From Marsupella aquatica (Eukaryota > Plantae > Marchantiophyta), in NCBI GenBank assembly GCA_973895155.1, contig OZ316894.1:4550944-4614943 (forward strand): 64,000 nt of DNA, written 5' to 3'. This document shows positions 14,787-64,000 of this stretch, piece after piece. Positions within the stretch are counted from its first letter, which is position 1. Each line of letters opens with the position of its first letter. Position numbers and translations under genes: made by a program. The notes under the pieces are model-generated. The model was not told the DNA's origin, did not search any database, and saw only the letters and a list, made by a program, of their open reading frames with translations.

Positions 14787-14796
14787 TCTTCCCCTT
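14787..14796 (-). other. Polypurine tract of copia element
   Basis: AAGGGGAAGA on the minus strand, just upstream of the 3' LTR. Confidence 0.85.
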
Positions 14797-14976
14797 GACT
14801 CTGGTCTAGGGAAGAGTAATACTGCCAATGTATATGATCCCTCAGCGGGAAGTTCTGGACAAAAACCAAACCGGTTTCCCTCTCTAACTAGAGCAAACCA
14901 GAACTAAGCCGTAGCCTAATACATAGGAATGAGGAAGAGCATATATCAGTAATTACAATGAATGTTTAAGAAAACT

Positions 14977-17900: not shown

Positions 17901-18249
17901 CCTTCAAAATCACTGTCTCTCCCGACCTGACTTGAAGTTCACCATCAATAACGCTCCATTGATGACCATTTGAATCCAACACACCGAGTGAAATCAGATT
18001 CTTACGCATGCCAGGTACATACCTGACTCCGGACACTGTGCGCACAGCGCCATCAAACATTTGAATCTTCACAGACCCAATTCCCTCAATTTGACAGGAG
18101 TGATCATTTCCCATCAGAACTGAACCGTTTGAAACAGAGTAAGAACTGAAAAACTCACGAATGTAACAAATATGAAAAGAGCAAGCACAATCAAGAATCC
18201 ACACATCATCTGCTCTCCTAGATGACGTGCACAGGGCATACCCCCGGCT
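14977..18249 (-). CDS. pol: Copia Pol (protease, GAG-pre-integrase, integrase, reverse transcriptase, RNase H)
   Basis: WILDCACSFHIC (PR), LWHSRLGHMS...CEHC, IHSDVWGP...LRSDNGGEY...QQNGVAERLNRTL (IN), YKARLVAKGF, LYGLKQSPRQW, LYVDDMLI (RT), YVDSDY...RRSTTGYVF, KHIDVRYHFIR (RNase H). Uninterrupted and in the same frame as gag. Confidence 0.95.
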   Translation of the reverse strand, partial: SRGYALCTSSRRADDVWILDCACSFHICYIREFFSSYSVSNGSVLMGNDHSCQIEGIGSVKIQMFDGAVRTVSGVRYVPGMRKNLISLGVLDSNGHQWSVIDGELQVRSGETVILKGSRQKNLYVLQGNTVCGEANVTKSHEEMTQLWHSRLGHMSEKGLAILRKNGLISDLQSYKLEFCEHCILGKQHRRAFGVGTHRSKAVLEYIHSDVWGPSPTPSHSGKLYYVSFIDDYSRFVWIYFMTHKSDVLSIFKKWKAQVENQTGNTIKCLDTRMKSLRSDNGGEYTSMEFEEYCSEQGITRHLTTVYTPQQNGVAERLNRTLLERSRSMLSQSGLPQEFWAEAVNIAAYLVNLSPSSAINFKTPFEMRYKRQADYHGLVIFGSDAYALTPKQNRTKLDPTSRKCVFLGYQSGVKAYRLWDPIACKLVVSRDVSFNESRLLKEGENTQVSRTDKGKSPIPDLVEGEIGYEVHDRREGVAPIMELVPMPEEPEEFVDAGEQQVDAVELQIVPAHADQPESSARRTSGRTVRAPSRYGQWVDSSQLQEDDFTADDEGDALILEEGEPSSFHEASASKEKQKWTAAMQTEMQSLKDNKTWELVKLPKGQQVVDSKWIYKLKDNSIGGGSKVYKARLVAKGFTQEKGVDYNEVFSPVAKYSTIRLLCVLVVMFGLLLDQMDVVTAFLYGTLEEVIFMRQPLGFVKRGQEELVCRLLKSLYGLKQSPRQWNKRFDDWIRSQGFHRSVFDPCVYLKPVKNVVFGFIILVLYVDDMLIAAKDRSEIVKLKALLSAEFKMKDLGPAKRILGMEITRDLEAGKLWLTQSSYARKVIARFNMENSKPVSTPLAPHFKLSSAFCPTDDTEKGLMSKVPYDKAVGSLMYLMTCTRPDLAMAMGKVSRYMSNPGKVHWKAVKWIIRYLKGTVDHGLLFDANAKNARSLIGYVDSDYGQDLDRRRSTTGYVFTLGGGCISWRSTLQKCIAQSTTEAEYVAAAEAAKEAIWLDRLITEMGLPQGNVKLHCDSQSALHLAVNQVMDSRVKHIDVRYHFIRQAVSDNLFELIKIDGKLNPADAFTKVIPLKSFSRHRDVLQVLQLHHK

Positions 18250-19239
18250 TCATAAAACATACTCATCATTGAGTAAATCAGCTTCTCCATCAGCCCTAGC
18301 CACATTTGCCGATGAAGTTTCCGCTGCCTTTCCCTTACAGTCTCGCTTGAAGTGTCCAACTTGGTTGCACTTCCAACATGTCACCTGCCTCCTCTGAGGG
18401 GATTTACCCTTGGACTTAGATCTGGATTTAGATCTAAACTGGGTTCTACGGTCCCCAGTTGGTCGCTGCATACTCCTCCCACGGTTAACATTGAGGGCAG
18501 CACCAGATGATGAAGGCTGTGACGTGATGTGCATCTTCTGCTGAAGATCATCACTAAGCAGAGAACTTACCACGTCATTGTATGAAATGGTATCCCTATC
18601 ACGATGCAACAACACTCGTGATAGGGACTGGTAAGATGGAGGCAATGAACTAAGAAGCTGCAAAGCCTTCGTCTCATCATTCAAAGTCTCCCCAAGGTTT
18701 TCCAAGTCAACGACCATGTCGTTGAAAGCATCCACATGGTCTTGCAACTTCGTACCAGATTCCTTCATCCTGAAACTCATCAGTTTGTAGGAAGTGTAGA
18801 GCCGGTTCGACAACTCCTTGCGGTGATACTTGCTCTGCAATTCCGCAAATAAGGACATGCAATCCTTATGTGCACCCAACTGCTTGATGATGGGAGGCAT
18901 GAGATAGAGTGTAACACACCACACTCCCTGCTCCTGCATGCGGTCCCATTGTTTCTCATCAACATCGTCTTCACGAGGGCTCAGCAGTTGGCCCATCCCT
19001 GACGCATAAAGCACTCCCTTCACCTGCTTCTCCCATAGCAAGTAGTCAGAGCGCCCATCATACTTTGTCACTTCATACTTGGGTCCCCAAGCTTGAAAGT
19101 CCCCATCTTCTTCTTTACCGTGAGCTCCGGTAGTAGTACTGCTTCCTCCACCACACGCCGCACCGGTGATGGTATCGGTGTCACGTGCTCTTCCTCCTGC
19201 TCCTCTCTCTGCCCCTGAAACCTCCGCGGTGACCCTCAT
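18250..19239 (-). CDS. gag: Copia Gag
   Basis: KYDGRSDYLLWEKQVKGVL, ALQLLSSLPPSY, zinc knuckle CWKCNQVGHFKRDC. Ends at an in-frame TGA immediately before pol. Confidence 0.93.
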   Translation of the reverse strand: MRVTAEVSGAERGAGGRARDTDTITGAACGGGSSTTTGAHGKEEDGDFQAWGPKYEVTKYDGRSDYLLWEKQVKGVLYASGMGQLLSPREDDVDEKQWDRMQEQGVWCVTLYLMPPIIKQLGAHKDCMSLFAELQSKYHRKELSNRLYTSYKLMSFRMKESGTKLQDHVDAFNDMVVDLENLGETLNDETKALQLLSSLPPSYQSLSRVLLHRDRDTISYNDVVSSLLSDDLQQKMHITSQPSSSGAALNVNRGRSMQRPTGDRRTQFRSKSRSKSKGKSPQRRQVTCWKCNQVGHFKRDCKGKAAETSSANVARADGEADLLNDEYVL

Positions 19240-20425
19240 GCTTCAAGTTCCACGTCTTCAAAAAACTCCTCCGAATCACTCATATGAGAAAGTCACAAAA
19301 AATGTTGTTTTTCACAACTTCTCAAAAAACTCGAAACTCAACACCGCCGCGTAGCCCACAAAGCTAGGAGTCCAATACTGAAAACCGAAATCAAAATCGA
19401 AATTTGACGGAAAAGTTATTCAAATTTCGGTCGAGGTGGGTAAAACCTTGGGAAACTCCCCCGTTTTGACCACCTCAGGGAATAACCAAAATACCAAGTA
19501 CAACCCGTTGTCGGAATTGCGATGTGATTGGTGCGCTGCATTGCCAACTTCAATGGCTACGACCTCGCCGAAAAATAACCAAAAAAGTTACCGTTCGGCG
19601 GATGAAATCTTTGTCGGACGGTCAAAAAATAGCTCTCTGGTTTTTTGGAATATTCTATGACCCTTGTACAGGCCCTGTGGGAATTTTGGAAGAACAATCG
19701 AGGGGCTGACATGTGTCCTCGAACCCCCAAAACCCCCTACCACCCTTCGTCGTCGAAATCTGGTCGCGCGCGCAGAAAATACACACGGCAGAATGTACCC
19801 CTCGACACCAAACGCAAGATATCTCACTCGGGTTTTGACTAAATCAAGATCCGATTTCAGATTTGGAAACTAGACTCCGAGGTGATGAAGATCGATATAA
19901 GAAGCACCCAAAACGAGGAAAGAACGAGGGAGAAAAAAATTGGTAAAGATGACAGATTTCTCTCAATTGCCATAGCCAATTTCGAATCAGTTTTTCAAAG
20001 AGAAAAAAAAATGGTACCTTGTCAACAACGAATGTTGATCAATTGCACTTGGTGCCGTCACCAAGTCCAACAAGGTAATTGATTTTGCTTAGCCTTCCTC
20101 TTTGCATCAAAGAGCCAATCCCGGACTCAAAAACAATCGTCTTGCCTCAATCTCTCCGTTGAGTCAAAACACTTGACGCTTCTCCCTCTGAGTCGATTGC
20201 CAACTTTCTTCACAAAATCCAGAACGACGAAAACTTAGATCTCTCTGCACCACGAGCTCCGTTCAACGATTTCTTCACACCGTTAGAAAGCTCTTGCCCT
20301 GATCTATCCGTTGAGCCCATAAACTCCAAGTTCAATGCGATGGAACTCTGGAAAATCCACCAACACTCAACGCTGGAAAAACCGTCATGAAATCCCGTCA
20401 CGAACACACGTCACCTCCCAAGCAT

Positions 20426-20437
20426 GCTCTGATACCA
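20426..20437 (-). other. Primer binding site (initiator Met tRNA)
   Basis: TGGTATCAGAGC on the minus strand, 2 nt from the 5' LTR. Confidence 0.95.
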
Positions 20438-20439
20438 AT

Positions 20440-20882
20440 TGTTGAGCATAGACGACGATCGCAACGGCAAGCCCATGAACCATCCAACGCACAATAGTCG
20501 ACACAAGAGATACGTGGTTCACCTCCTTGAGGCTACGTCCACGGGAACACACAAGAGAGCTTTACTGAACTCTAAGCCCGTCGGCTATACCGAGTCTCCA
20601 CAGTGTAAGCTCTCCCTATCTCTCAAGTGGCTCCATAACAATGAGCCTTGGTTCTACCTCTCCAAGCACACATGCCTCTTATGATATAGTGTGCAACTTA
20701 GTTGTACCTAACCACATAGTTGTACCTAACCACATAGTTGTACCTAATCACGTAGTTGTACCTAACCACATAGTTGTACCTAATCACGTAGTTGTACCTA
20801 ATCACGTAGTTGTACCTAACCACGTAGTTGTACCTAACCACGTAGTTGTACCTAACCTAGACGTAAGAGTAAATACCCAACA
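20440..20882 (-). repeat. 5' LTR of copia element (same 18-bp array at 20699-20857)
   Basis: Matches 14343-14785. Confidence 0.96.
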
Positions 20883-29300: not shown

Positions 29301-32300
29301 GGTCTTGGAGTTGGAGTGATTGAAATGAAAGGACTCAAGGTTCATCATGACTAGACGAGCTACACTATTTAGAGCTCGTGCATTAGACAACAAGGCCACC
29401 CTAGGCGCCAAACCAAGCAATGCGTCCTTCTCCTGCAGACCTCAAGTCCAGTAATGCAGTCGCTCATTCAAGAGTTTCTTGAAAAAAAAGAAAATATGAA
29501 ACACATATCAAAAGAAGATCCTTTGACCTTGATTTTATAGACTACCCTTACATGTAAAGCTTATCTACCCCAACCTTTTCACGTAACACTGGCAGGTTAA
29601 ATCAAGGGCTGCTAGACAGGCACAGGAGTGGAAATATGTTGAAGTTGAAAACCTGGTTATTCCAGGAAGATGGGAACCTGGAGTTTGTCAGTTCCGTTGC
29701 ACCTTTTGCAATAAAACAATTTTAGGAGGATTGAAAAGATTACGGCATCATCTGGGTGATGTACCTGGTGCAGATGTGTCTGGTTGCAAATCAGCTCCTC
29801 CTCATGTGAAAGATGCAGTTAGGAAAGTATTAGCCAAATCTAGTAGTTCCCTCCCACTTATACATCCAAAGGTTAGTGCCTTCCAAATCTGGTTTTCCCT
29901 ATACCCAAAGGGTCCTTCTGCACCATCTCCATTTCGTCCATAAACCTTTGAAACGGTTGTACATGATTTCCAAAATATTGCTGTTATGATCATGTGGGGA
30001 TGTATTACCATTCATCGGGTAATGATCTCCTCGTTTTCAGTGGTCAATACCTTCGGAGTCAACGAACACTGAGATGTCCAGAGTTAGATCGGTCTGATAC
30101 TCGATCCAACAATTGAGTCCCTGGTAATTTTGTGGGTCAAGATTTGGCAACCACAGCGCCGTGGTTTTATCGGGAGCCGGGGTGGTAAACCTATAAACAG
30201 TGAATTGCATCGTCTCTCTCTACGTTCTATAACTGGTACACCGACCCTTATAAGATTTGACCAGAGAGAGACATTTAAATCTTGTGGAAAGAATTAATGG
30301 AACTCAGGCACATTGCTCTCTTAATCTAGAGTAGGAGAGATTCCAAAAATTCATTTCAAGAGAAATTGACGCCAAGGAATACTAGGACAGAAGAAGTCTT
30401 TACTGGCACATGTCGTGGGGGCCCGGGGCTGTTTCCTCTCTGGTATGGGAAGTTGCTGTCAATATTGGAAGGCTAGTACAGATTCTCATTGTGCTGGTTG
30501 TATGTCAACAGGTACAGCGCTTGCTCGGTTTATGCGCAGATCACCTAGAAAAAGGGGAGAGTCATCAAGCTCCTGCTGTTCTAGGTATTGCTCTGGTGGC
30601 TATGGCGGAGGAGCTTGGCTTGGACATGGCCATTCGCTCATTAGAGCACCTGTTGCAATATGGCGAACAGAATATTAGGCGAGCAGTTCCTTTGGCTCTT
30701 GGCATTCTATCTATATCTAATCCAAAGGTGAGATTCCCATCTCTTCAGCTCAGACGAAGGTATCTTCTCTTTACCTGTCGTTAGAATCGGTTCTTTTGTC
30801 GGTAGTTTGCGATTACAGATGCAGGTTGGGCGTTGAGATTGCTTTTTACTGCTGTTTCAGTCTCCTGTTTTTGCGTTAGTTTTGCGACAGAACTGAGAAG
30901 TAAATTTGACACTGCAGTTATGCTTGTTCGTTTTTGCAGATAACTGTGATGGACACCCTTAGCCGACTTAGCCATGACAGTGATTCAGAAGTGGCCATGG
31001 TAAAGTTCACTCAAAGCTGAAGACTAATTCTTTTGCCGTGTCTACTAGCAGTAAACTCTAATTGGCGGCACTGAGAATATTTTATTCCATAGGAGTCATT
31101 ATGGTGCCGGATTCATCTTAGCAAGCTTGCTCTCTATAACCTTTCTAACTTTTGTTTGTCTTCGAGTCAGAAGTTTTTCGTTTACGTCATCGCATGCGTT
31201 GGCTCGCCTGCATATATCTTCTTTTCTGGACATACCTGAGACTAGATTGCTTTGGAATTTAAGGTTTCTTTGAGTGGGACACTTTTGGTAATGGTTTTTA
31301 TCTTCATGTACAGGCTGCCACAATGTCTCTTGGTTTAATTGGAGCTGGAACCAACAACGCCCGTATTGCTGGCATGCTTAGGAATTTGTCCAGTTACTAC
31401 TACAAGGAACCGAGCCTTCTATTTTGTGTATGGTCCCTTGGATTTATCCCTGTACTTCAAATTTTACGCATTCAAGTACTCGTTTATCCATTTGTTGCCT
31501 CTTACAGGTTCAGGGATGTCAGCTACTCGATCCCTTACAGTTGTGTGTGATGTACTTACGTACAATATTCAGCTTTTGTGGCTCCCTCCTGGGGTTCCTG
31601 ACAGGATTGTGTGAAATTTGAATGCAGGTTAGGATTGCCCAAGGGCTGGTGCATATGGGAAAGGGATTGCTCTCCCTGAATCCGTACCATTCTGACAGAT
31701 TTTTACTATCAAAGTACGTCTCTACCATAGATGTTCCCTAGTTATATTCGTAAATGTTCAGATTCTCTGTGATAAATAGCTGGTGGATGTAAGTCCTAAG
31801 CTTTTGCGACCTTCAGTATCACACGTAGATTGTGGGGACCTCTCCCTTAATTTGAACCGCTCTGGCGTTTGTGGTGCAGTGTTGCCCTGGCAGGGCTTAT
31901 GACCTTCTTACTTGGATGCCTGGACATGAAAGCTATCATTCTCGGGAAGTACCACTATGTGTTGTATTACCTCGTTATGGCCATGCAGGTTGGTAGCATC
32001 TGAATCAAGTTACGGTTATTAAAAGTGTGTAGTCTCTAGAATCAGATACAGGTTGGAAGAATGGTAGTTTGACATACAGCTACCTGTGGGACATTGGACT
32101 GTGTTTTGTCCTCCGTTTTTGTAGACTCTTATTTCAGATTGTGGCGTTGAGTGTATTCCATCATTCCTCCAATAGGTGGTACCTTAGATAATTGATGTTC
32201 TGTAATGTTTTAGTAACTAAAGAGTATATTGTCGAGCAATTCTATTTTGATCATTTGTGGAGAATAGCGCATATATTCCTGACGACTTGCTGAGTAGGCA

Positions 32301-37831: not shown

Positions 37832-40800
37832 CTATGAAATGGAATGGCGTCGCCTTCTTCCACCAATGCGTCCAGACCGAGAATCAGGAGTGTTGGGCTC
37901 CTTGGAATCTATTGGTTTTACTCCGCCAGGGAGTTTAGAGAAGGGATTTAATCTCGTTAGCTTCTTGGAGACGGATGACAGGAAGGTCTTTCCTCCTCCT
38001 CCCTTCTCTATATCTTGCTTCATGTATTGATGGTCTTTCTCTAAGTCGGTGAGCCGCATTCTCATTCTTGCAACCTCCAGCTTCAATTCTCTGTTCTCAC
38101 GGCGGACTGAAGCGTAGTTGTCCCTGGGTGACACGGCAGAGCTGTAGGCTCCACTGATCCTTTGGGAGCTATGGTTATGGTCATTGTCTGCGAAAGACCC
38201 GTTGATGGCCGCTCTCAAGCGGAGCTGCTCAAAGTACAGGACCTGGACCATGATCTGCACGGGAAGCCTTTCATTTTGTGCTGCGTGTGTGCATGCCTCT
38301 TGAGACAGCTTTTGGACGTCCATAAGTTTACAAAGCTTCTTTCTATCCACTTCTGTAAGTGATGGGTGTGCCTGCAGGAAGACGGAACAAGAGGAGGATC
38401 AATACGACAGTTCCACGATTGTAATTTTCAAACCCATGATAAAAACACACAAAAGTATCAACAAATAAACAACAGGAAGGGTGACTAGAAACGCAATAGA
38501 AAAACTCTCCGACTGCACAGTTTAAAGCATGACAATGCCTCTTTGTATTAAAGATAGGTAAGCCTACACGACGATCAGAACAAGATGCTCCAAGTACAAT
38601 TTTGTGCTATCCATTTTCGTGTAGATGAAGCTACAAATTTAGCCAATTGTGGACATGGGTGGAATCTACAGACAGGACGGAAAAAAAGCTCGGCGGAAGA
38701 ATTCACATCCACTGCATTCAACCTATCATGATGCAAATAATAAGTAATCTACCTATGAAGATGAGACAGTGAGGCTGCACTTTAATGTAGAGCATAAAGA
38801 GGACTTATGGCACCACTCAAAGATCGAAATGACATTCACAACGACAGCTCCCTTCCAGCTCACTTGAGAGAGTTCCGATTCACAACCATATACTATCTAT
38901 GACGATAAGTATAGCTCATTTTGGGCCACCACACCAAGAAAACTGCTCAAGAATGGCAACCTCCGTAGAAAATGATGTGTTCGTTGTTCCTGGTGCCGGA
39001 CCTTTTGTCTCAACCCTCTGGCAGGGATAAGGAAAGAATTGCCCATAGAACTAAATCTCAATTTGAAGCAAGAAGATGTGAGACCATTTAGTTCGAAAAG
39101 TGCTGTCACAATTAAAAACTGTTGATGCCTTCAGCTCACCTTAAGGTAAATGTCAATAGCTCTGTAAAGGCCATCGTCGACCACCCGGGCGTACTCGGGG
39201 AGAAGTTCAGCGAGAGTGATGAACTTCGAGAGCTTCAAGTTGGCATCGGGGGCAATCTCAGCCAGGTAGCTATCCAGAAGTTTGGCCACCTTCATGAGCG
39301 AGCTTTGCGTTGGAGAGCCAAGTCCCCCATCCGATTCATACATAGTGTGAGGATCGTTGGCATCCTCATTATCATTCTGCTGCAAGAAGCAACCAACGAT
39401 TCGTTGCACAATATCCACATCAAAGAGAGTGTCCCCTGTGTAAGAGAAGGAGGGGATCAAAAGGTCATCCAGAGTAGCTTGCTCCAGCTGCTGCCCAATC
39501 CGTCTCTCTAAATCTAGACGGCATGCAATGGTCGTTTCAAGGATGATGGCCGTCCTGAGGAGCCCAAACAAGAAAGTGCAAGATGCCGTGTTCCTCTCCG
39601 GGGGCAGAAGACTGACAATGGTCTCGACCAAAATCCTCTGCTCATGCTCAATGGCGGTGGTCGAATCATGCACCTTCTTCTGCTGTTGCCCACCTTTGTA
39701 CATATCTCTCCCACCCTGCTTCCTGTGCAGCCCCTTGAGGGACCTGTGAGCATAGTGCATGAGAGCACCCCCAATGCTCTCATACCTCAGGCCACGAGAC
39801 CTCATGGCGGCCAAAACCCTCTGGTAAAAATCTATTCGGAGCACGGCAAGGTCCTCCGCCCACCAGTCAGCTGGAGCAACCTTTTGGGGCTTCTGGCTAA
39901 AGCTCAGCTTCACGTTGATGCTTCCACTCTCTCGGCCGGACCCCTCAAAGTCTGATTCACCTATCCCCTGAGCGATCTGCTCCCGGCAAGCCTTGGATGC
40001 AATGGCATCGATAGTCCGGCTCACGATTTTCAGCTCCTCAGCCCAGGGCAGAAGATTCTCACAATTGTGAAGGACGGTGATGGAGTCGGCCAGGTTCTGA
40101 CACACCACTTCGTTCAGGAAGGCCTCCGTTCTGGCCACGAGGTTCCCGTCCCCGTACTCCTCGGTCATCTCCAGGTACTCAGCTGCACACCGAAGGACGG
40201 CTACGTTGGCGGTAGTGATCTCGAAGTTGATGCCATAACAAAACCTGGCCGCCATGTCAAAGCCTTCGGACCCGCCAGGAACGTTTGGCAGCTCCATTTG
40301 GGAGACGTCCGACTCCCCGGCTTGCACCACCAGCATCCTGATCCGTCCGCATCGTGAGACCAGCGGAAACTGTGATGTCCATTCCAATTCATTCGACCAC
40401 AAAGCCAAGCCACACCATTGAAACAAACAACTGTCAGCCCGTACTGTCCCGTACAACAGTCGTCATCCGCCGCCAACAAACAATGATTGTAGTAGTGTAC
40501 CGTCCATTCCAAACAACCGTGCAACTCAAATCAACATCCAGTACACATAATTATAGTGAAAAGCAATCACCTGGCAATCATTATCACTCTTTTGCACCCT
40601 CGGGAGTCCATAAGCCATGATGAAGGCAGAATGAGATAGAAGGCAACGACCAGAATGATGATTAATTCAGTGGAGCACCACAAGATCCTACGCACACACT
40701 AACCTTGTGAAGAGCAAAGCTGACGCCACCAACGATGACCACCACGTCGCTCGGGACATCAGTTGCCAGGACCCTGCACATCAACCATGACAATCAGAAC

Positions 40801-47950: not shown

Positions 47951-48626
47951 GACTCTTCCCCTGATTTTATTAGCCAAGGGGTCCACGAACTAATTAGAAC
48001 ATATGTAGTGGCAAAGTACTTTAAAATTTTGATTTTTGGAGATTATTCCTGGGAGCTTTCTGGCCCTTGCCCTTGGAAATGCTAGTTTCATGATGTCTGG
48101 CTTTGCACATGAGGGGCTAATGACATTTTTCTCTCAACCATTTGTATGCTCCTGTCAGTCAAATTTAGTGCCAAATTTTAAAGGGCCAATAACATGTGAG
48201 TTGGCTCTAAGGTTGAGTTGACTCTAACGGGAGTCCCATACCCCTAATTACATTGTTCACTTTGTAATTAGTGTTATGCAAGATTTAGCATTAGTAAATT
48301 AGTTATACAAAAACACCAATTTTGTGCTAAGTTTGTACCTTCCCACTAAACAATCTAAAGCCCTTCTCCAGGGTAACCAGTATTACTTAGAAAGGTCTAA
48401 GCCATGTTGACTCTGTTTCAACCCATGCAACCCACTCAAATGAGATAACAGTATTTTGGCATCTATTACTTGTTGGAATAAAAAACAATTATAATTTTAC
48501 ACAGGTCTTATGCCAACTGGAATGGCTCTTCCTTCTATGCATCGAATTACACCTCATGCCCCTAGCCCACCTGAAAAGCTCACTAGCTGTACTGCACAAT
48601 GGAATACTAAGAGACAATCCATAGTT

Positions 48627-48784
48627 GAGAGAGATACTTGATGGACCCCCAAAATGTAAAGTGTTTCTTGATGGACCCATGAGTGATCCAAACAGTTGAT
48701 AGATCTCAAATCAATATACCCAAAAGCCCATGGGGTCTATCAAGTAAGACATTTCAATTTAGGGGTCCATCAAGTATGTCTCTC
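48627..48784. mobile_element. Mutator-type MITE (158 bp)
   Basis: TIRs GAGAGAGATACTTGATGGACCCC / revcomp GAGAGACATACTTGATGGACCCC, extending ~55 bp. 10-bp TSD ATCCATAGTT at 48617-48626 and 48785-48794. Confidence 0.88.
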
Positions 48785-50569
48785 ATCCATAGTTTGTCTA
48801 TCAGAGAAGTTGGAAGAATAGTTCAGAACTATATATCCAGGGGAAACTCACCAAAGCTATCGTGCTAAACTGAAATGGAGCAGCTCTGTTTGGACAGTCT
48901 CCACCAACCCTTCTCCACTCTGTTTGGTGCAAACACAAAAGTTAGCTGCCATTTTTTATTATCTTCATGATAGGGTAGTATTGGGGTGATTAGGGTAGCA
49001 AGTTAGGGGATAAACGTTGGGTCTGAACCAGTGCTTACTGGACAGTCTCCCTGTAACTGGGGTTGACCAAACCCAATTACTAAAATGTCAAAAGTCATGT
49101 TCAACCTTCCCTGTAAGGCTATCAAATTCTCAGGACTAGATCTTTTGGTTACTGGATCTGTATTGGAAGAATCAATACAAATCTTGCTTTTGATTACCTC
49201 ATGGCTTTTACAAATCCTCTCTCAAGTTGTTTATTCTACCTGTGTTATCCTCACAAAACCTACAGTCAGGTGTGAACGATAGCCTAATTCCTCAAGGCTA
49301 CATTGCTGGGATTTAGTAACCTAGAAGGACTCAAGTAACCAGTTGTGAACTGACCCTAATCCCAACTGCAAGATAGACAGATATGACGTGACTGTATGAG
49401 GAGGTGACTTGGCCACCAACAACATGTTCCCTAGCTTTGCCTTAAATCATCAAAGTATGCCCATGCTGGACATATGTGAGTGTTTAGAAGGAGAGAGCTG
49501 AGAACTAAAACTAGGCAATAAGGTTCACATCTTGTAGACTGCAGCTACAGCAATAGCACAAGATTTGAGAACTATTTTGCAATCCCTTGAAACCTAGCTC
49601 CAAGGCCCACTTGAGCAACAATGTCTTACCTCCAAACAACACAAGATAGCATTAGTTTGGAGTCTTCTGAGTTTCAGATCAAATTTTCCCAAAAACCTAG
49701 TTCCAATGTCCCATTCACTGTTGCATCAAAAACAAGGGGCATTGCCTATGGTAGAGCAACAACTTTAGCTCTTGCCACGAGCCTTTCTCTCACTACAACA
49801 AGGCTCAGTTTTTCATTGTTAGCTTCCCTGTATTCACTTGTTTGAGCAGAGGTTGCCCACTCCTGAGCTGCGCTCCTTGTCAGTGTCTGGTATTATCATT
49901 TCCAGCCCGGGTTTTTCAGCTTTTCAAGTGACATTTGGCTCATGGTATGGTATACTTGATGCACGGGACTTCCATGGTGTACTGGCCTTAGTTCGGCCTT
50001 TGGGCATTTGTACTCTTTTCCCCTTCCATAAAATGGAGAATTTTCCTGAGTGTGAGCTGCCTGGCAAGTTGTGTGGGGGTTTCTTAGGAGGGGTTTTCCC
50101 TCCCCTCCCCCCACTAACCACAATTAAAAAAATAACTTAGTTATCTTTGCACCCATGCCATCCCTTCATGTTATACTTCAACTCCATGAAACGATGAATG
50201 ACGAGCATTTCCAAGCTGTTGATGCACAACCCTCAAGATTTCATCAAACAGATTAATAGCAATTGAAACAATCAAGAAGTAAAAGACAAGTGAAATGCCA
50301 AACATGAATTTGCGATTGCATGTGGCGGTACTCTCATTGACTTATAATCATATTTACATAGCTTTGTTTATATCATCCTTTGTAGACCTCTTGTGCTTAC
50401 TGAAGGTTCGTGTTATGTGGACATTCAATAAATGTCTTCACATTTGCATTTAAGTGTCTTAGGTATTATGTTTTGACCATTGTGAATGATTGATTTATAT
50501 TCTTCAACTCAATCCCCGCACACTAAACTTTCACACCCCATAACACAGCGGCAATGACAACATGACCTC

Positions 50570-52196: not shown

Positions 52197-52362
52197 GAGA
52201 GATATGCTTAGTAGACCCCTTCTGGAAAAAGTTTGCTTAAGCGACCCCCTCCATACTTTTCCCCAATCTGGACCGTTGATGGACCTTTCAATCTCAGATC
52301 TGGACCGTTGATAGACCTCAGGGGGTTGATCAAGTAACAAGTTTCATTTTGGGGGTTGATCC
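52197..52362. mobile_element. Degenerate Mutator-type MITE remnant
   Basis: Left end GAGAGATATGCTTAGTAGACCCC resembles the TIRs at 10206 and 48627. Right side has GGGGTTGATC doublets. No TSD found. Confidence 0.45.
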
Positions 52363-52800
52363 TGAAGAACACCAGCTACCATCTCAAGGCTATGCTGGCA
52401 ATCAGTAAGATGGCCAAGAGGTCCAAACAAATTCAACAAGGAGTGGACGAGCTGGACTTCATCCTTAGGCCATGGGCTGGCTCTGGAGGTGCGTAGTGCG
52501 ATGACATCTAGTTTATGAAGAGCAACAATACGCTGCATGCTCGGCTTGGTGGTGCCAGGGGTGGTACCATTACCCATTTGGGAGGAAGCAGCATAGGAGC
52601 ATTGACAACTATTCCTCCACTGACTTACACATGTGTAGTTACCACGAATACTTTAATAGTGATAATTATTTCTGTAAACGGTAACATTACACCGGTTAAA
52701 TTATAGTCCTTTAGTCTTAGAAGCGTCAGTCAGAAGTTAATCCAGGGTATTTAGGGAGCAGCACGCAAGGACCGGTAGCAGTTCATTGCATCCTGTTAGA

Positions 52801-53409
52801 ATGGCGGAAAGGCTAGAATTAGGGGAGGCGACGATCATCGCGATTAGTGGCCGGACAGGAGTAGAGTTCTGTTATGAAGGTTGTGATGGCTTTCTAGCAG
52901 ATGGCAAGGTCTGTGCCTTAGGCACAAGGGCTCGACAGAAAAGACAAGAGGGGACCGACATGGGAACCCCTATTAGCCGAAATCGAGTAGGGCATAGGTG
53001 TAAACCGCTAGGCGAAGGAGTGCTTATGTTTATGTTCACCATTCGGGTGAAAGAAGGGAGCTGTCGTGTCTGGGATGAGGCCGGGCAACAATTGTTTGGA
53101 ATGAAGGGCGAAGAGTTTCGTCAGCGATTCACGACCAACGGGGCCATTGAGGAATTCTGCAGAAATGTCATGCGGAAGAAGTGGAATCTGGTACTAAGGC
53201 GGGATAACAACCGCGATCAACGGATTGCATGGCGATTAATCACCGCCGGTCAAGTAATCGTCGCCAACAAAGCGACTACCGCTAAGGAAGGGGACGATAA
53301 CCTAAATGTCGTTTCACACTTAGCAGGATTGGCGATCAAAAGTCCGGAAGCTTCCAGTTCAGGCGCCATCAAAGAAGAGAATCAAAGGCGTTGTTGCACA
53401 GTTCAGTAA
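52801..53409 (+). CDS. Accessory ORF (202 aa) resembling the RPA70 C-terminal OB-fold (Rep_fac-A_C-like ssDNA-binding domain)
   Basis: Pattern ATIIAI...CYEGC...VC...RC...FMFTIRVKEGSCRVWDEAGQQLFGMKGEEF...IEEFCRNV.RKKWNLVLR parallels RPA1 DBD-C (ATI.fI...Y.aC...C...RC...y.l.i.D.tg..w...F.e.ae.llG.sa.El). TATTTAG lies ~50 nt upstream of the ATG. Recognised by eye only. Confidence 0.6.
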   Translation: MAERLELGEATIIAISGRTGVEFCYEGCDGFLADGKVCALGTRARQKRQEGTDMGTPISRNRVGHRCKPLGEGVLMFMFTIRVKEGSCRVWDEAGQQLFGMKGEEFRQRFTTNGAIEEFCRNVMRKKWNLVLRRDNNRDQRIAWRLITAGQVIVANKATTAKEGDDNLNVVSHLAGLAIKSPEASSSGAIKEENQRRCCTVQ

Positions 53410-53920
53410 CCACGGGAATCTTTTTGACATGTAAACACGGTTCTTGGCTCGCTCATCGTTCTTGGCAGGAGACAGTTAGAGTTTCTTGGCAGATTAGCGC
53501 AGGAGACCGCGGCTGAAGGGCGAACCGTCCAACTGAAGTCGGCGCGCCCCGGAAAGTAGTTAGAAACCTCAGCAAAGACGGACGCGAGGCATAGGTATTT
53601 AGAGGCTGTGGAGCGCTAGGCGCTCTGTCACCTTTTGCTAGGAGCTTGGTTGAGAGGTAGAGCCGGACTCACCTCAAGATTACCAGCGTTTTGTATTAGT
53701 GTCCCTACTCGTTTTGAGTAGTTTTTGATTATAAAGAGATGTGTATGAATGCAATAGAGTGCAGAGGAACTTCGTTACCTTGTGCTTGAGCGGTGAGTAA
53801 GAGTCCAAAGTCAACGTTGGAAGAATGTTGTGAATCAAGTCAGAAGAAGCAGTAACTTTGAAAGTCATTCGAAGAAGGAGAGGCATTCGTGATTAATACT
53901 GAGAGTCAAGGAGTGCGGTT

Positions 53921-54232
53921 ATGGGAGTTCGCGCGAAGTACTCGTTAGGAACATGTGTTAAGTCGATTAATCGTAAATCGCTGGGATGAATGGAAATCGT
54001 CTCACTACGAGTGAGGACCTTACGGTTTAGCACGTTAAGGCAACGATTTAACAGACAGCTCGTGGGAAGCAAGGTCTGGTTGGAGATTGTGTGTATCCAG
54101 GACGTGACCTTGGTCGTCGTACACCTTCAACATACAGGGTCAACCGTTAAACTGGGGTTCCTACTACGGATACCTCTATTTAAATTGCTTGATTTAGCCA
54201 AAGACAGATCGATTGCCAGGAAGGCCGATTGA
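53921..54232 (+). CDS. Small accessory ORF of unknown function (80 aa from 53990; 103 aa from 53921 if the TGA at 53987 is a decay mutation)
   Basis: ATG 53921 is in frame with ATG 53990, separated by a single TGA. Same strand as gag-pol. Confidence 0.4.
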
Positions 54233-54274
54233 GGGACAGCAAGACCTAACCCGGTCACTGCTACTATAACAACC

Positions 54275-54595
54275 ATGAATGTAGACAGTAAGGCGGACAA
54301 GCCTTGCTCCTTGATTAAGTTAAGACCACTGGAATTGTGGATCTGTTCCATCGGTTCCCACCTGATTACCCGAGCGTTACGCCAGGAGAGTATTCCCATC
54401 TGTTTAATTACTTACCGCTACTGGTGTGGGTTTATCGAGATCATCTACAGGGAGGGTCTGGTGTTGACTGAAGCAGTCGTGCCCAAGAAGTGGAAGGAAG
54501 AGTTAGACATTATAGAGCACTTGGTAGGATTCACTTACGGGGACTATATAGAGGAAGAGGGGAGTACCCCGCTAGAAGGTCGGTTGATCGTTTAA
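54275..54595 (+). CDS. Small accessory ORF, 106 aa, unknown function
   Basis: ACCATGA start context, protein-like composition, co-oriented with gag-pol. Confidence 0.45.
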   Translation: MNVDSKADKPCSLIKLRPLELWICSIGSHLITRALRQESIPICLITYRYWCGFIEIIYREGLVLTEAVVPKKWKEELDIIEHLVGFTYGDYIEEEGSTPLEGRLIV

Positions 54596-54665
54596 GCGGG
54601 AGATACTGCGAAGAAGGCAGTTAGACGTCCGTTAATCGCAAGTCAAACTGGGCGTTTAACATTTT

Positions 54666-54683
54666 TGGCGACCATACTGGGGA
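54666..54683 (+). other. Primer binding site, probably tRNA-Arg type
   Basis: TGGCGACCATACTGGGGA, 4 nt after ...AACA; resembles the Tat/Ogre PBS TGGCGACTCC(A/G)CTGGGGA. Confidence 0.8.
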
Positions 54684-55585: not shown

Positions 55586-58500
55586 ATGGGCAAGATGCCC
55601 GTCAATCCCAACGAAGGGGAAATGGCAGGGGAGTTCGAACCTTTCCAAGAAAGCAGACCCAGACTTGAGGCCGAAGAACGAATCGAGAATTCAAGGACTC
55701 AAGATAAGGTCAAAGAAAACCTGGAAGAAGCCATGGAACGACTTAAAATCCACCAAGGAGCTGGCAGTAGTTCAAGATCGGCTCCTACCAGAAGGGTTAA
55801 AATACCCATGTTCAAGGGAGCACCTGATGAAGATGCCGATACCCACTTAGCACGTTTCAAAGAAATGCTCAGAGCTAACCACGAACAGAACGACACAGCC
55901 CAATTAGAGTTGTTTCCCAGCTCGCTGGACAAGGAGGCTTTTGTATGGTACACTCAATACCCAGCTGACCATTTCAAAACTTGGCCTGATTTTTCAAAAG
56001 AATTCTTAGATCATTATAGAAGGGCTAAGGAAGAATCCGATTTGTATAGCATTCTGCAAAACATGACTCAGAAGAAAGGAGAACCAGTACAGAACTATAT
56101 TGGATGGTTAAAGGTAACAATGAGACGATTAACGAATAAACCGTCCGATGGGCAACGAATTAGCTGGATGAGGAAGGCTGTGAAGGGGAGTCTAGTCACA
56201 GTGGTGGAACAAAATCCCACTTCTAATGCTGATGAATACGAGAAAAGATTAATACGGCTAGAGGGCATTACTCAGATGCTTAACCAGGAAAAGAACGAGA
56301 GCAGTAAGGACGAAGAGAGTGTTAACCGGAAAACAGAAACTTCTAAGGTAGAAGCCAAGGAAAACCGAGAGCGAGGCGAGGTTAGTACTCGTAAATTCTG
56401 TGAAATACATATGAGGCCTGGACACACTACTCATGAATGCAACCAATATCCTTTTAAAAAGAAACCTAGCCTAGGTGTAAATCAGGTAGGAACAAGCAAA
56501 CAAGATGGGGATAGGATGGAGAGTAGCTAGGGATATTACAATCCTGATCGTAACGCAAACTGAAGCCCTTATAAGGATGGTGGGGCTAAATACCCACCGA
56601 TTTGCTATTACTGTCGACTAACCGGCCACATCAGGGGCCCCGATTGTGAATTATGGATGAAGCATATGAAAGAAAAGGAAGAAATAGCAGGGAAAGCCCC
56701 AGCACCTATGAACATTGTGCAGGTGTCGACATACGTGGTGACAAGATCTCAGGGGCAGCCAGAGGACTCAACCCCAACCAATCCCACGGAGATTGAGGGA
56801 GGATTCGATTGGAGCCAAATGGACGCAACCACACGAGAAATAGCGGATGAAATTTGCCACAAACAGCAGAACGAGACGCTGCCACGGCCTGAACGATTAA
56901 TGCGTTCAGAACCTTACGCAGAGACGGATACTGAAATTCTAGAGGAGGGAGTGACGATGGGGGGATTCGATCAAGAAACGGGACAACTCCCACGAGACGA
57001 AGAACCACCGAATAACCCTGCCGAAGCGAACCAGCGAATAGTGGATAAGCTAGTGCAACTCATCGCGAAGACCAGAGTCGACATCACTGTCGAGGAACTG
57101 TTCCAATTAGCACCACAATGCAAGGAAGCAGTAATGAGACGGTTGGGAGGCAGAATTAGTCCTACCACACTGCCAGGGGTACCACTGTACCAAGCTGGGA
57201 AGATTCCCCTGATCGACAAAGGAGCCATAGTACAGATCAGCGTAAGGGGCATCAAACTGAAGAACGTATTGCTGGATGGAGGGTCAGCCGTAAACCTCAT
57301 GAGTGAGCAGACCTACAGACTGCTAGGCAGAGTCAAGCGCTTACCGGCCCCTTTTAATCTAGTAATAGCCGATCAAAGCAACTGTCACCCACTGGGTTAC
57401 GTGCCAGACTTATCAATGCTGATTTCAGGCATCAAGTACAATTTAGGAGTGGTAGTTTTGAGAGAAGCAGATTCTACCCGAGGACAACCCATGTTGTTAG
57501 GACGACCTTGGCTAAGACAGGCCAAAGTAAAACAACATTGGGGGGAAGAGAAGGATTATATAAAAATAGAACACAGAGGAGAGACCTTCAAGATCAGGAC
57601 CAAGGCCATCGAAGACGGTGTACCACCTATGGCCAGAGTTTGTACTTTGAACTGGGCAGAGGGGTTGAATGAGGATGAAGAAGAGACCTATTTAAAATGC
57701 CGTCCAGACTTAGTACCAATTTCAGATATGGAAATAGTCAAGCTTGACGAGATGCAAGGAATGACCAGAGAAAAGATGGATCATGATCTACAAAACGATC
57801 TGTTTAAACACATAGACCCGCAAGGCATTCAGGAGTGCTCGTTAAAGGAGGAAGAAGCACAGACCACCTTGCAGGATCTAGCAGAGAAAGTGGTGGGATG
57901 GAGTGCCACCGAGGAAGAGCACATTCAGAAGGTCAATTTGAGTGACACCAAACGATCGTGAGAAGTAAAGATAGGAAAACACCTTTCCCCCGAGCTCAAA
58001 GATGAACTTGTTACATTACTCGCCGAATTCCGAGATGTTTTTGCCTGGGATTACACGGAGTTGAAGGGAGTACCAGAGTCAATTGGCGTACATCGAATCC
58101 GACTCGTACCAGGGTCAGTACCGGTGCAGACGCATGATATAGGATGAACCCCAACTATGCGGAAAAGGTAAAAGAAGAAATCCAAAGGCTCCTTGATGCC
58201 AAATTCATTGAACCCGTTAAGCGTTATACGTGGCTATCTCCGATAGTCGTAGTACCTAAGAAAAATGGGAAGTTGAGAGTCTGCATTGATTTCAGAAAAT
58301 TAAACGCAGCTACCATAAAAGACCCTTTTCCAGTACCATTTCTAGAAGCAGTTCTGGATGTGGTAGCAGGAAAATCAGCTTATTCATTTCTAGATGGGTA
58401 GAGCGGGTACAGTCAGGTCCGGTTAGCAACAGAAGCGAGGGAGCTAACCACTTTCATTACGGAATGGGGCGCTTTCCAGTGTCTCGTATTACCCTTTGGA

Positions 58501-61500
58501 TTATGTAATGGGCCTAGTACATTTCAGCGATTAATGATGATGTTATTTCATGAGTATTTGAATCAGTTTATGCAAATCTTCCTGGATGACTTCACCATAT
58601 ACGGAGAGGAAGAGCAACACATAGGCCACCTCAGATTATGTCTCTTAAGATGTAGGGAAGGGGGAGTCAGCCTGAACCCTGATAAGTGTGCCACCTTCTT
58701 TGTACCATCGGGCAAGATATTAGGACACATAGTTTGTAAACAGGGCTTGTTAGTAGACCCAGATAAGATAAAAATCATTAAAGAGATGCCAGTCCCCAAT
58801 AGTGCAACCCAAGTCAGAAGGTTCCTGGGAAGTGGAGGTTTCTATCGTCGTTACATCAAGAGTTACTCCCAAATCAGTGCCCTGTTGGCACGATTAACGG
58901 GTAACCATCAAACGTTCACTTGGGACGACGACTGTCAGAAAGCGTTTGAAGAAATCAAGGACCGGTTGTGCCATGCACCCATACTCAAGGAACCAGATTG
59001 GAAGAAGGAGTTCCATCTACATACAGATGCCTCTCTGGTGGCGGTGGGAGCGGTGTTGGCACAGAAGGGAGAACAAGGTATCGATTTACCAGTATACAGT
59101 TATGCCAGTAGACTGTTAAACGTGCATGAAAGGAATTACACTACGACCGAGAGAGAAGCGTTAGCCATGATATTTGCCGTAAAGAAATTCAGGCATTATT
59201 TACTCGGTAATCGCTTTGTATTTTATGTAGACCACAATGCCTTAGTCAATTTGGTAAACAAACCGCAGTTGTCAGGCAGAATAGCAAGGTGGATTTTACT
59301 GCTAGCAAAATTCGATTACACCATCATTTATAAACCAGGGAAGACCCATGTTATACCCGATTATCTTAGTAGATTAGAGTCAGGAGAGACCTGTAAGGAA
59401 GGGGATGATCAATTGCCTGATATGGAGTTATTCCAAGGCGATCAAGAGACATACCATGTAAAACTGGTCACCTTAGATGACGAACCGGCGTTAGAAAGGT
59501 ATTTACGCACAGCAAAATACCCCGATGGGTTATCCAGTAAAGAGAGGAAAATCTATGCATACAAGGCGAGGCCCTATACTTTAATCAACCACGTGCTTTA
59601 TTACAAAGGGCCGGATGATATACTACGAAGGGTCATCCCAAAAGAGGAGAAGCAGGAAGCCTTGATCGCGGCACATGAGGGGCTAGGCGGAGGACATTTC
59701 GGCACCGAAATCACCATAAGGAAGATTCTGCAGCAAGGACGCTGGTGGGCAACGATCCATAAGGACACTTGGGAGTTTGTGAAGACTTGCGATTTGTGTC
59801 AGCGAATGGGCCCAATAAAAGAAAACATGGAATTCCGGCCCATAATAGCGCCGCACATCTTCCAGAAATGGGGATTGGACTTCATCGGGCCCATTACCCC
59901 AACTTCCAGGTATAGCCAGAATCAGTATATTTTGGCAGCAACGGAGTACACGACGAAATGGGTAGAGGCAGTCGCAACTCGCGACAACACCGCGCGAGTA
60001 ACGGCTAAGTTCATATATCAAAACATCATTACGAGGTACGGATTACCGGGGGAACTGGTAAGCGATCAGGGGTCGCACTTCATGAACAAGGTCATCCAGG
60101 AGCTAACCGACAACTATCATATCAGTCACCGGTTCTCAACGCCCTACTACCCGCAATGTAACGGACAAGCAGAATCGACGAATAAGATTCTACTCAACGT
60201 TTTACGGAAAGTGATTAACAACCAACAGAACGATTGGGACGTTCAGCTACCCGCCGCAGTATGGGCATTCCGAACGGCGTATAAGGTAACCACGGGCCAC
60301 ACTCCCTTTCAGTTAATGTTTGGAGTAGAAGCTCGTATGCCAATAGATTACGAACTTCCCAGTCTGCAAATCGCCGTCGGGTACGACATTAATCATAATC
60401 CGTCTTTAAGCAAACGATTAAGGACATTACTGGAGGTAACCAAAACCCAAACGAAGGCTGAAGAACGATTAGAATACATACAAGGACAACGCAAACGACG
60501 GATAGACGATCAACGGGATGTCACCACGTTCACTGAAGGAGAATTGGTACTTTGGTGCCGGAAAAGGGCACGCATAAAAAAAGGGAAGTTAAGACTTAAG
60601 TGGGAAGGGCCTTTCACTATACTCAAGGTATGGGGGAATGGAACCTTCGAAATTGCCAGCCAGGACGGCAGCGAGCAGCAGCTGGTGAACGGGAACAAAA
60701 TGAAGACATATCACGTTAGAAACGACGTGTACTTGCGGGAGGTAGAAAGCGCGGTTAACAACTACCTGGATGAAGACGACGGCGGAAATGACCACGATGC
60801 AGTACCAACACGGGCCGAGGATAGCGACCGCTATCAATCGTTAACAGCTACAAGAAACCAGAATCAAGTAGGGTTAGGGGAGTACCAATCATCTCCCAGA
60901 GTCGTGGCTTGTATAAGCGTGGCTCCCTACCCCGCAGCGGCGGAGACCACAGAAGGGGAAGAACTACCGGCGCACACAGGACCGTCCTTGGCTCACCCGG
61001 CCAGGCCAAGTACCACCTCTAACCACTATCGACAACAGCGAAGGGACCGAACAAACGAACAAGTACGGATAGCAGCGATTAAGGGATGTACGCTAGCAGA
61101 TTACGTGAATGAAGTAGTCCCATCAAGCGGACCGTTTAGTTTAGCAAAGACAAGCCAAATCAAATCAATTGTACTAGCAGCAGAAGATCTATCGGAGATA
61201 TTTCAAGTTCATGATTGGAAATACAAACTAACGAAAGGACAGGAAGAAGACCGGGAACGATTTCCGTATAGGGTAGTGATCGTAGGGTGTACTCACGGAA
61301 AATCATCCACCTGGATTGTGGATCGGATACTGATAGGACCTAACTCAATACTGTGCATAGAGAACTACGCCACGGGAAAATTACATGTGCTTCTAAAAGC
61401 TTACGAGACGGGGGAGTCCAAGAATCAAATACCCCTATCAGCGAGGGAGTTGCTAAGATGGAAACCCTATTTGCGGTTGGCGCGGAAGCTACGAGCGACT

Positions 61501-62943
61501 GCAGAGTGGAGCGGCTATCAGCGAGCACTGAGGTTCAAGTGGACAAGAGTGGGGAGAAAATATTACACATTTCCTGTAGGAATGAAGGTAGTAACCCTCA
61601 AGAGAGCAGGCAAATTTGCAGACGAGTACCCCAGGAAACGCACGACGATGGCAGAACTGCTAGAAACGCCAGCCATGGAAGGAACGACGTCATACACAGA
61701 AGAAGAACATGCGGAAGGAATGGAAACAGAGGTGCAAGAAGTCCTCACGGACACGACTATTAACGATCAAGGAGTCGTCGGGAAGCAGCCACCGATCGCC
61801 GATAGTGTAGCAGGGGCGGAGACGGAAATGGGAGAGCAAGAACTCAAAATGGAGCCGGGGTCTGAGCGGCAGGATGTCAAAGCAGAAAAGGAAGTGCCGA
61901 TCAAGGTACCAGAAGCTCAGGTCGAGAGGTCGGAGGTGCTATCAGTGGGGAACGAAGGACCGCAGGTAAAACGAAAATTTACGCTTGCAGATTGGCTGAC
62001 CGAAACCGACCCGGAGGTGGAGATTGCGGCAGTCACAGCAGCCATACTTGAGGAATCGACGCCTCCCGACACGAAGAGAACTCGCCCAAACAAGGTGAAA
62101 TTTATTAACGAGGAACGACCCAAGAGGAGAGCGACCGATTCAGAGAAGAAGAAGGCCAAGATAATCGAACCCGAGGAGGAAAAAGAAGAGAGTAGCTCAG
62201 CCAACGAGGAAGAAGAGCTCGGCAACGAAACAACAGTCCAGAAGAAGAAGTCAGTTGGATCGAGTAGAGCCCGTCCGAGGGAAGTTTTCCATGTGCTTAA
62301 ATTCGAAAGGATGGAGCCCCATATCTTGAAGAACATGAGAGACCCAACTCACCGGAAGTTCTTACGGTCGCAAGGATTAGAGGATTTCGTGAATTCGACG
62401 TGGAGTGTTCCAACTAAGCTACAAGCCGAGGACTACAGCAAATTCATCTCCACGTGGAGGCCCACCGAGAACCAAGGGAGATGCAGGGGGCAAATCATCA
62501 AGACCAACCATCGGACATTGCATGAGTTATTCAGTTTGCCAGAGCGAGGAGCGGAAATTAAGAAGCGGATGGGGAAGACCTGGCAGCCCGCCTCATTTCC
62601 ACAGCACAAGGAGGTAGATGACACACGAGGCTATCAGACCAAACACTGCACTAATGAGAGAATCAAAGAAAGGTTAGAATTCGTTACCCATGCCCTGCAT
62701 TGGAAATGACCTAGGTCAGAGTACCCACGATTCATGATAAAAATCGTGGAAGAAGGGAGTGGTAAGCAAAAGAACTGGTCAGCGTTTTTTTATGAGGGAT
62801 TCCATTCGGCGATTAAGCGAGCTCAGCGATTAATAAGTAGCCAGAGCAGTTTGCCGGTAGAAATCGAATCGCATTTTCAAGTTTTAATAGGAAGTCAACT
62901 AAAGGAAGGAGGTAGCAAGAGAGGAAGTCCAGCAGTAGCATGA
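55586..62943 (+). pseudogene. Gypsy Gag-Pol polyprotein with C-terminal extension, disrupted
   Basis: Gag (KIPMFKG...HLARF, AFVWY, QKKGEPVQNY), knuckles CEIHMRPGHTTHEC and CYYCRLTGHIRGPDC, protease VLLDGGSAVN, RT, RNase H (HTDAS, NYTTTERE), integrase (HEGLGGGH...CDLCQ, WGLDFIGP, SDQGSHF, PQCNGQAE). In-frame stops end at 56530, ~56563, 57961, 58401 and 62709, with a 1-nt frameshift near 58135. Confidence 0.9.
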
Positions 62944-64000
62944 CCCAAGACCGCAGACAAGACAGAGAAGGTCGAACCGACCGAGAAGCGCAGGACGACA
63001 ATGCATACAAGGAAGATAAACAACTAGGAGACGATCGATCGCCAATGCGAGTAACGAGGAGGACGGTCACGGAGCAGCCACCAACGAAGGACCAGGAGGG
63101 ACCAGCTGAAACCAAGAAGTACTCAACGGCAGCGATTGAAGACGAGGATCTTAATTATGCTTTATCAGCGATTAGAGAAAAAGAGGCACAACTAATACTG
63201 CAGGAGGGAGGATTGGAAGGGCTACGAGCTGAGATCAAAATGGTACAAAAGAATAGCATTTTCAACGTCATGGTGGGACAGATCGTCAGTCAGATGTCAA
63301 TTTATCAGGGGATACAAAGTGCTCTATTACAGTTGCAGTGGGACAAGCAGGAAGAAGACATGGCAAGGAAGTTAGCCCAGCAGGAAGAATCGACAAAATG
63401 GGCAGTAGAGGCCGAGGGGACGATTAAGAAGTTACTCACCCGAAATGCAGAGTTGTTACAAGAAAATGATCGATTAGCGACTAGTGAACGAGGATGGAGG
63501 CACGAAGAAACAGCCATCAAAGACTTAGCCGAATTCCTGGGCATCGAGAAGATACAAGCAGGGGGGTTAACAAGCAACGATAGGGAAGTAATCGCGGCCA
63601 TCCAAGCAGCGATTACCACGGTAAAGATGGAGAAACGAAAAGCCAACCTACAGACGGAGCAGGGTATAGAGAAGCTAAAGGAGATCGAGAAGTTGAGACT
63701 CCAACTCAAAGAAGAAGCAGCACAGCAACAGAGCATAGCCAGCAAGTGGGAAGTCGAACGCCAACGTGTAGAAGAACTGAAGCATAAAATCAAGGATCTG
63801 GATACACAACTCAGCCAAGCCACCTTACAAGGGGATCCGACGACGGCTTCAGGAGAATCCACGCTAGAGACCGCAAGGTATAAGGAAGCCGAAAGTAGGA
63901 TCGGTCAATTAGAAGTACAACTTGCAGACGCCTTGAAACAACGACCAGAGGGGAACGAAGCAAACGGGGAGCTGGAACAGCTCAGGTCAGAGCATGACCA
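62940..64000 (+). CDS. Long coiled-coil accessory ORF (over 350 aa, open to the window end; absent from the ORF track because it has no stop)
   Basis: MTQDRRQDREG...LNYALSAIREKEAQLILQE...IEKLKEIEKLRLQLKEEAAQQQ...RVEELKHKIKDLDTQL. Read codon by codon with no stop from ATG 62940 to 64000. Confidence 0.75.
   Translation, partial: MTQDRRQDREGRTDREAQDDNAYKEDKQLGDDRSPMRVTRRTVTEQPPTKDQEGPAETKKYSTAAIEDEDLNYALSAIREKEAQLILQEGGLEGLRAEIKMVQKNSIFNVMVGQIVSQMSIYQGIQSALLQLQWDKQEEDMARKLAQQEESTKWAVEAEGTIKKLLTRNAELLQENDRLATSERGWRHEETAIKDLAEFLGIEKIQAGGLTSNDREVIAAIQAAITTVKMEKRKANLQTEQGIEKLKEIEKLRLQLKEEAAQQQSIASKWEVERQRVEELKHKIKDLDTQLSQATLQGDPTTASGESTLETARYKEAESRIGQLEVQLADALKQRPEGNEANGELEQLRSEHD

Follow-up and report, generated by a model that had tools for sequence, protein, structure and literature searches.

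What is an intact protein-coding frame doing inside the long terminal repeat (LTR) of a retrotransposon? In the window, by which we mean the whole 64,000-nucleotide stretch of Marsupella aquatica DNA that was analysed, the original prediction had placed an ATG-initiated open reading frame (ORF) of 202 amino acids, read as an RPA1 DBD-C OB-fold, inside a putative LTR. The frame and its location were both confirmed. The ORF occupies 52801-53409 on the plus strand and lies wholly within the LTR, beginning 128 bp inside it, and the ORF list, the signs of selection and its relatives mark it as an accessory ORF of the element.

The LTR and the element around the ORF

The 5′ LTR spans 52673-54661 on the plus strand (1,989 bp) and has a short terminal inverted repeat; its TG...CA ends were read directly (first letters TGTAAAC, last GTTTAACA) and are matched by contig breaks. 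Its limits were located by aligning contigs from six public runs to the window (X1 to X4, then X2, X4, X5 and X6), and some of these runs may derive from the window's own source. A multi-copy contig of X2 (record 3) started exactly at 52673 with a depth of 756 compared to 35-44 for two contigs that include the flank; an X4 contig (record 10) also started exactly at 52673, with a depth of 1641, and reached 52836, past the ATG, and the X4 contigs within the ORF had depths of 1155-1757, level with that of record 10, where contig depth is not copy number and was used solely as a step at the LTR boundary. At the other end, an X1 contig terminated exactly at 54661, the right end of the LTR. The left break was absent from X1, in which one contig crosses from the flank into the LTR at intermediate depth. 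The Ty3/gypsy element is multi-copy.

Directly before 52673, an X2 contig carried a tract ending AAGTAAAGGAGGA, in which 12 of the last 13 bases are purines, and X4 showed a blend of two contigs with identical first bases at the LTR start. A purine-rich tract joined to 52673 is how a polypurine-tract junction at a 3′ LTR would be expected to look, and it points to such a junction indirectly. The 3′ LTR, beyond the window end, likely carries the ORF as well, and we infer that both LTRs, as well as solo LTRs, contain copies of the ORF. An initial guess that placed the LTR start at about 52630 was ruled out by the multi-copy contigs starting at 52673, and a split-LTR layout was ruled out by the TG...CA ends, the adjoining primer-binding site (PBS) as well as the purine-rich junction. 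The putative LTR of the original prediction is thus established as 52673-54661 by the contig breaks, the TG...CA ends and the adjoining PBS, and the PBS itself was found where it had been placed, at 54666-54682 (plus strand), four T past the LTR end and with TGG starting at 54666. The window contains no tRNA gene by which the PBS could be typed. Loose contig ends in several runs at 54050-54296 correspond to short patches common to a more distant LTR family. A MITE-like repeat of very high copy (52197-52361, bin depth 8,500-50,800) lies 300 bp to the left of the LTR, and an inverted-repeat element related to it is found at 48607-48804.

The interior of the element follows on the plus strand. 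A gag frame at 55586-56530 (PF03732, E 9.6e-11) is terminated by a stop in this copy, as is a post-gag frame at 56564-57961, which has a protease-like motif in its translation and no Pfam match. The 3′ part of the reverse transcriptase (RT), RNase H and integrase are encoded at 58402-62709 (PF00078, PF17917, PF17919, PF17921 and PF00665). Stops and a frame change disrupt gag-pol in the window copy, with RT broken upstream, and its domain order of gag, protease (by motif), RT, RNase H and integrase is that of Ty3/gypsy. At 60739-62940 the integrase frame is extended by about 650 amino acids that have no Pfam match, with 77 more open codons past the stop. Membership of the Athila clade (OTA non-chromovirus) is a possibility: a 3′ sense extra ORF lies at 62940-64000 on the plus strand, is coiled-coil-like, has weak coiled-coil-type Pfam matches only and runs past the window end, and neither an additional RNase H nor a chromodomain gave a Pfam match, a missing match being weak evidence.

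Elsewhere in the window, a Ty1/copia-like element on the minus strand (14342-20839) has open gag (18250-19239) and pol (14977-18114) frames; its LTR stretches are 100% identical and contain an 18-bp tandem array, and its insertion is likely very recent. Tandem arrays of 19 bp and about 138 bp lie at 8381-8613 and 13831-14284, respectively. We take the segments at 5486-6955, 30410-30784 and 37832-40336 to be host exons, resembling a GPI transamidase subunit, the proteasome subunit RPN1 and an NPH3-family gene.

Selection on the ORF and its relatives in liverworts

A second LTR subfamily was found in X2 (39 differences over 207 bp and 12 over 98 bp) and X4, and organism C contained it at low depth. 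The two subfamilies are 81-88% alike and share the ORF, which settles in favour of the original prediction whether other copies of the family hold it. The differences listed (40 of 63 rows) include 39 within the ORF; six of these are common to all copies compared and three occur only in organism C, and setting them aside left 30, with 27 of them in the core. When compared to the second subfamily, 18 of the 27 listed core differences are synonymous and 19 are at third codon positions. These correspond to a pN/pS of about 0.15-0.23 depending on the weighting of transitions (p 1e-6 to 2e-4), a site count over a partial list of differences and not a codon model. The original prediction had proposed a comparison of dN/dS across copies; in this site count the ratio is not near 1. 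A frame on the minus strand has its third positions in common with the ORF, yet contains just an 82-codon stretch. In the tail, all three differences between the subfamilies among those listed are nonsynonymous. Five of the six private changes of the window copy are nonsynonymous, as drift following insertion is expected to produce, and the ORF is interrupted by a stop in one low-depth organism C contig. Overall, the ORF is under purifying selection and is more than a chance reading frame.

A full phmmer scan returned 75 matches, down to E 1.5e-30, and three of them were dropped as WD40 artefacts, leaving 72 relatives. None of the 75 matched an OB or RPA Pfam model at E 0.01. The ORF itself matched neither PF08646 nor any other Pfam model at E 1, so the suggested check against PF08646 came out negative, the profile failing to detect the family. 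With the single ORF as query, a word-indexed protein search yielded no relative among 74 candidates, sequence searches of the PDB gave no match apart from four chance ones, and metagenome and viral contigs contained no relative by protein or by pattern.

Among the 30 representatives looked up, eight are species-named; all of them come from Calypogeia fissa or Riccia sorocarpa, two species placed in separate classes of liverworts. Seven chromosome-size contigs hold 30 Riccia-named clusters, many of them near-identical, as would be left by a transposon burst. The family tree, a quick version built without an RPA1 outgroup, is silent on origin. In long Riccia gene models a coiled-coil and RING region lies upstream of the domain and is joined to it; because the domain retains its own Met, 27 residues ahead of the YxGC-type motif, these models are likely adjacent ORFs fused by gene prediction. 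The 16 long relatives scanned had no OB Pfam match and several had coiled-coil or RING matches, and the upstream parts of the long Riccia models gave no significant match to the 3′ ORFs of this element. The coiled-coil and RING region that precedes the OB ORF in Riccia is conserved and is a possible element-borne ubiquitin ligase. The relatives form a protein family that escapes Pfam and whose members are listed in liverwort annotations as hypothetical host genes.

Predicted fold, tail and expression signals

The core of the protein (residues 1-152, 52801-53256, plus strand) is predicted to be a lone OB fold of the RPA70 DBD-C type. An alignment-based model of residues 1-159 (68 sequences) had a pLDDT of 93.2 and a pTM of 0.84; a single-sequence fold (pLDDT 36) was left unused. 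All six Foldseek matches at E ≤0.001 came from RPA-containing entries, with RPA chains in the top two rows and 4gop_C as the best match (E 1.7e-4, TM 0.61 by query). In VIA, an independent search, the top three rows were again RPA chains (Z 11.0-11.2 over 130-131 residues), led by 8rk2_A (Z 11.2, rmsd 4.6, 131 aligned), and human entries were matched at RPA70 458-608; lower rows held Teb1 OB-C (10.6), CTC1 (8.8) and simple SSB-type folds (6-7), and POT1 was also matched. Identity to RPA70 in the VIA alignments was 11-14%. The ESM Atlas assigned residues 1-156 to a PF08646 cluster at 0.90 (183 of 256 features) and the whole protein to PF08646 clusters at 0.88, the latter a lead only, while a viral structure library gave no match at E 0.001. 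The model, Foldseek and VIA together support the earlier claim of an RPA1 DBD-C OB-fold, and none of the three outcomes named as refuting the original prediction was observed. The domain presumably originates from RPA1, either of the host or Helitron-borne.

The RPA-like cysteine spacing that had been read from the sequence did not hold. Instead of a C4 ribbon, the conserved set is C28, C38, H65 and C67, all four of which are present in 47 of the 61 representatives covering those columns; C24 is poorly kept (12 of 83 rows). From the alignment, this C-C-H-C set is predicted to bind zinc, forming a site (52882-53001, plus strand) around a basic insert at residues 41-64. The insert has 5-7 K/R per 24-31 residues in all eight rows shown, with R60 in 70 and R62 in 64 of 87 rows. 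Position 91, at which RPA OB folds presumably stack bases, is aromatic in 75 of 84 rows. In RPA70, a trimerisation helix comes directly after the last strand; here the model shows coil at residues 152-159, where it ends, and a homotrimer prediction without alignment scored 0.00. The ORF is stand-alone, the tandem DBD-A and DBD-B of RPA1 being absent.

Past a variable linker, the tail of the window protein has hydrophobic residues spaced 3-2-1 at residues 170-179 (53308-53337, plus strand), the class-1a pattern of nuclear export signals. This pattern occurs in 18 of 25 representative tails of at least 25 residues and is absent from the other seven, compared to a mean of 4.1 and a maximum of 11 in shuffles (0 of 2000 reached 18), and with the Riccia-type rows excluded it occurs in 11 of 15 tails (shuffle mean 1.4); the tail rows are related, and these counts show conservation of the motif, not function. 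Control spacings (reversed, class-1c and one other) were at chance, and class 1b spacing, which overlaps 1a, was also enriched. Two helix-type spacings were enriched as well, in 9 and 12 of the 25 tails, and were found in just 2 and 4 of 15 once the Riccia-type rows were removed. The tail is helical, longer and with heptad spacing in the Riccia-type rows, and part of it may be coiled coil. Acidic residues often precede the class-1a pattern, which is located outside the folded core in the window protein. True export signals lie mostly outside folded domains, and patterns of this kind have a high false-positive rate (PMC6488578, in its available part). Judging from the conserved pattern, the tail likely holds a nuclear export signal.

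The predicted TATTTAG upstream of the ORF is present, with TATTTA at 52748. Together with a T-rich, AG-ending tract that abuts the ATG (52748-52799, plus strand), it offers, on sequence grounds, a possible promoter of its own and a possible splice acceptor. By pattern counts, the LTR has a sole TATAAA at 53730 and a sole donor-like GGTGAGT at 53792, 62 nt past it (53730-53798, plus strand), which are likely the main promoter and the 5′ splice donor. These two sites would place the ORF in U3. No GTRAGT was found across the 9.3 kb of internal region inside the window. The lone donor-like site closely follows the point at which the genomic RNA likely starts, and this RNA would thereby be intron-containing. 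The ORF would be expressed either from a promoter within the LTR's first 128 bp or by way of a spliced message, in which the donor at 53792 would be joined to the acceptor preceding the ATG in the 3′ LTR.

Candidate functions and known systems

The reading that we favour, tentatively, is that the protein is a Rev-like adaptor that would bind the element's unspliced RNA and recruit exportin-1. The OB fold and the presumably zinc-held basic arm would bind the element's own unspliced RNA, and the export signal of the tail would pass the RNA-bound adaptor to exportin-1, as Rev does for HIV; RNA is thus the presumed ligand and exportin-1 the presumed partner. Since the export-signal-like pattern of the tail is conserved, RNA export seems at least as likely as the cDNA protection or action against silencing that the original prediction had proposed. 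Against export, two LTR segments that were folded gave z of -0.23 and -1.60 and so no exceptional RNA structure, and the nearest structures bind ssDNA, not RNA. The export signal could also merely hold the protein in the cytoplasm, which would equally fit a role in protecting cDNA.

In that alternative, which we consider unlikely, the protein is a cytoplasmic ssDNA chaperone whose OB fold would coat cDNA in reverse transcription and strand transfer, while the tail would retain it in the cytoplasm or dock it on the particle. Its best structural matches (RPA70-C, Teb1 OB-C, CTC1 and POT1) are indeed ssDNA-binding OB folds, the mostly aromatic position 91 agrees with this, and an export signal is compatible with it. 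However, the protein is fused to neither gag nor pol and hence has no evident route into the particle, its basic insert is foreign to RPA, and it is missing the two domains by which RPA1 chiefly binds ssDNA, DBD-A and DBD-B (PMC4731521, available part). Quite unlikely, in our estimate, is a decoy that would mimic the subunit-binding domain of RPA1, capture host RPA2/RPA3 or partners of RPA and move them from the nucleus or the element, thereby loosening transcriptional silencing. DBD-C is the subunit-interaction domain of RPA1 (PMC4731521, in part), yet 11-14% identity to RPA70 is low for keeping an interface. The helical tail, with its heptads in Riccia-type rows, would suit a decoy, but its helix comes only past the variable linker. 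The coil at residues 152-159 stands where RPA70 has its trimerisation helix. Arabidopsis RPA2 is required for transposon silencing, which we counted in favour of the decoy.

That the ORF is a passenger, either a Helitron or host RPA fragment inserted in the LTR or a decaying relic without a role in the element, is very improbable and largely refuted by these data. RPA70 homologues are carried by Helitrons (PMC4344730, available part), and the excess of nonsynonymous private changes in the window copy and the stop in organism C would suit decay; against this, two diverged LTR subfamilies share the ORF with a strong synonymous excess, one contig covers the LTR start and the ATG at full depth, and the family is kept in two classes of liverworts. 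Among the seven element ORFs scanned with Pfam, none was a Rep/helicase gene of a Helitron. An explanation other than export, chaperone, decoy or passenger appears improbable.

A fuller version of the export reading is that, in liverwort Ty3/gypsy elements, RPA1's C-terminal OB domain became an RNA export factor similar to Rev, gaining the zinc-held basic arm and the export signal as new parts, and that its gene was positioned in U3, which would give each LTR, solo ones included, a copy. This scenario as a whole is doubtful; if true, a plant retrotransposon would possess an export adaptor of its own, kept across both main liverwort classes. The nuclear exit of plant LTR retrotransposon RNA has not been directly studied, according to the available part of PMC12786077. 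The two conserved motifs can be mutated, which allows export, cDNA protection and RPA mimicry to be distinguished by simple assays.

The protein resembles DBD-C of RPA70/RPA1 (PF08646; PDB 8rk2, 4gop and 1l1o) in its OB fold, in an insertion at the position of the zinc ribbon and in being matched best to it by both structure searches. It differs in having C-C-H-C in place of the C4-C6 zinc-finger motif (PMC4731521, as far as available) and a basic insert, and in being a lone domain at low identity, with no helix directly past the last strand and no HMM match. Like plant Helitrons (PMC4344730, in part), the element retains an RPA70-derived gene; unlike those rolling-circle DNA transposons with ssDNA intermediates, it is an LTR retrotransposon with a single such domain, encoded inside the LTR.

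As an accessory ORF kept family-wide in a Ty3/gypsy element that is probably not a chromovirus, the gene is similar to the extra ORFs of plant LTR retrotransposons, for which Rev-like roles have been proposed in general terms; in the available parts of PMC6317226 and PMC7264820, however, these are placed in the internal region, with no RPA-like one among them. Most such extra ORFs are without an assignable fold, whereas the fold here is predicted confidently. RPA terms were absent from the main text of bioRxiv 2024.04.02.587720, as available, and from the five supplementary files of PMC6317226, which may lack large tables. More broadly, an RPA-fold gene inside an LTR was not found in the literature searched, subscription papers and Repbase being outside the search.

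HIV Rev and CERV of Cer1, the latter a precedent for a Rev-like reading (PMC10309623, available part), are likewise small accessory proteins in which a basic, Cys-rich part binds nucleic acid and an export signal is established or suspected. Their folds are unrelated and they are not LTR-encoded, and for the present protein, a proposed export factor, the two LTR segments folded showed no response element. The ORF shows that a plant LTR can hold a selected protein gene. For an ORF near the start of an LTR, the likeness is to sag of MMTV, which codes for a protein at the start of U3 and is present in both LTRs; its product, a retroviral membrane superantigen, is unrelated. Retrotransposon accessory genes are a known kind, and what is new is an LTR-encoded, selected gene of the RPA70-C fold with a conserved export-signal-like tail.
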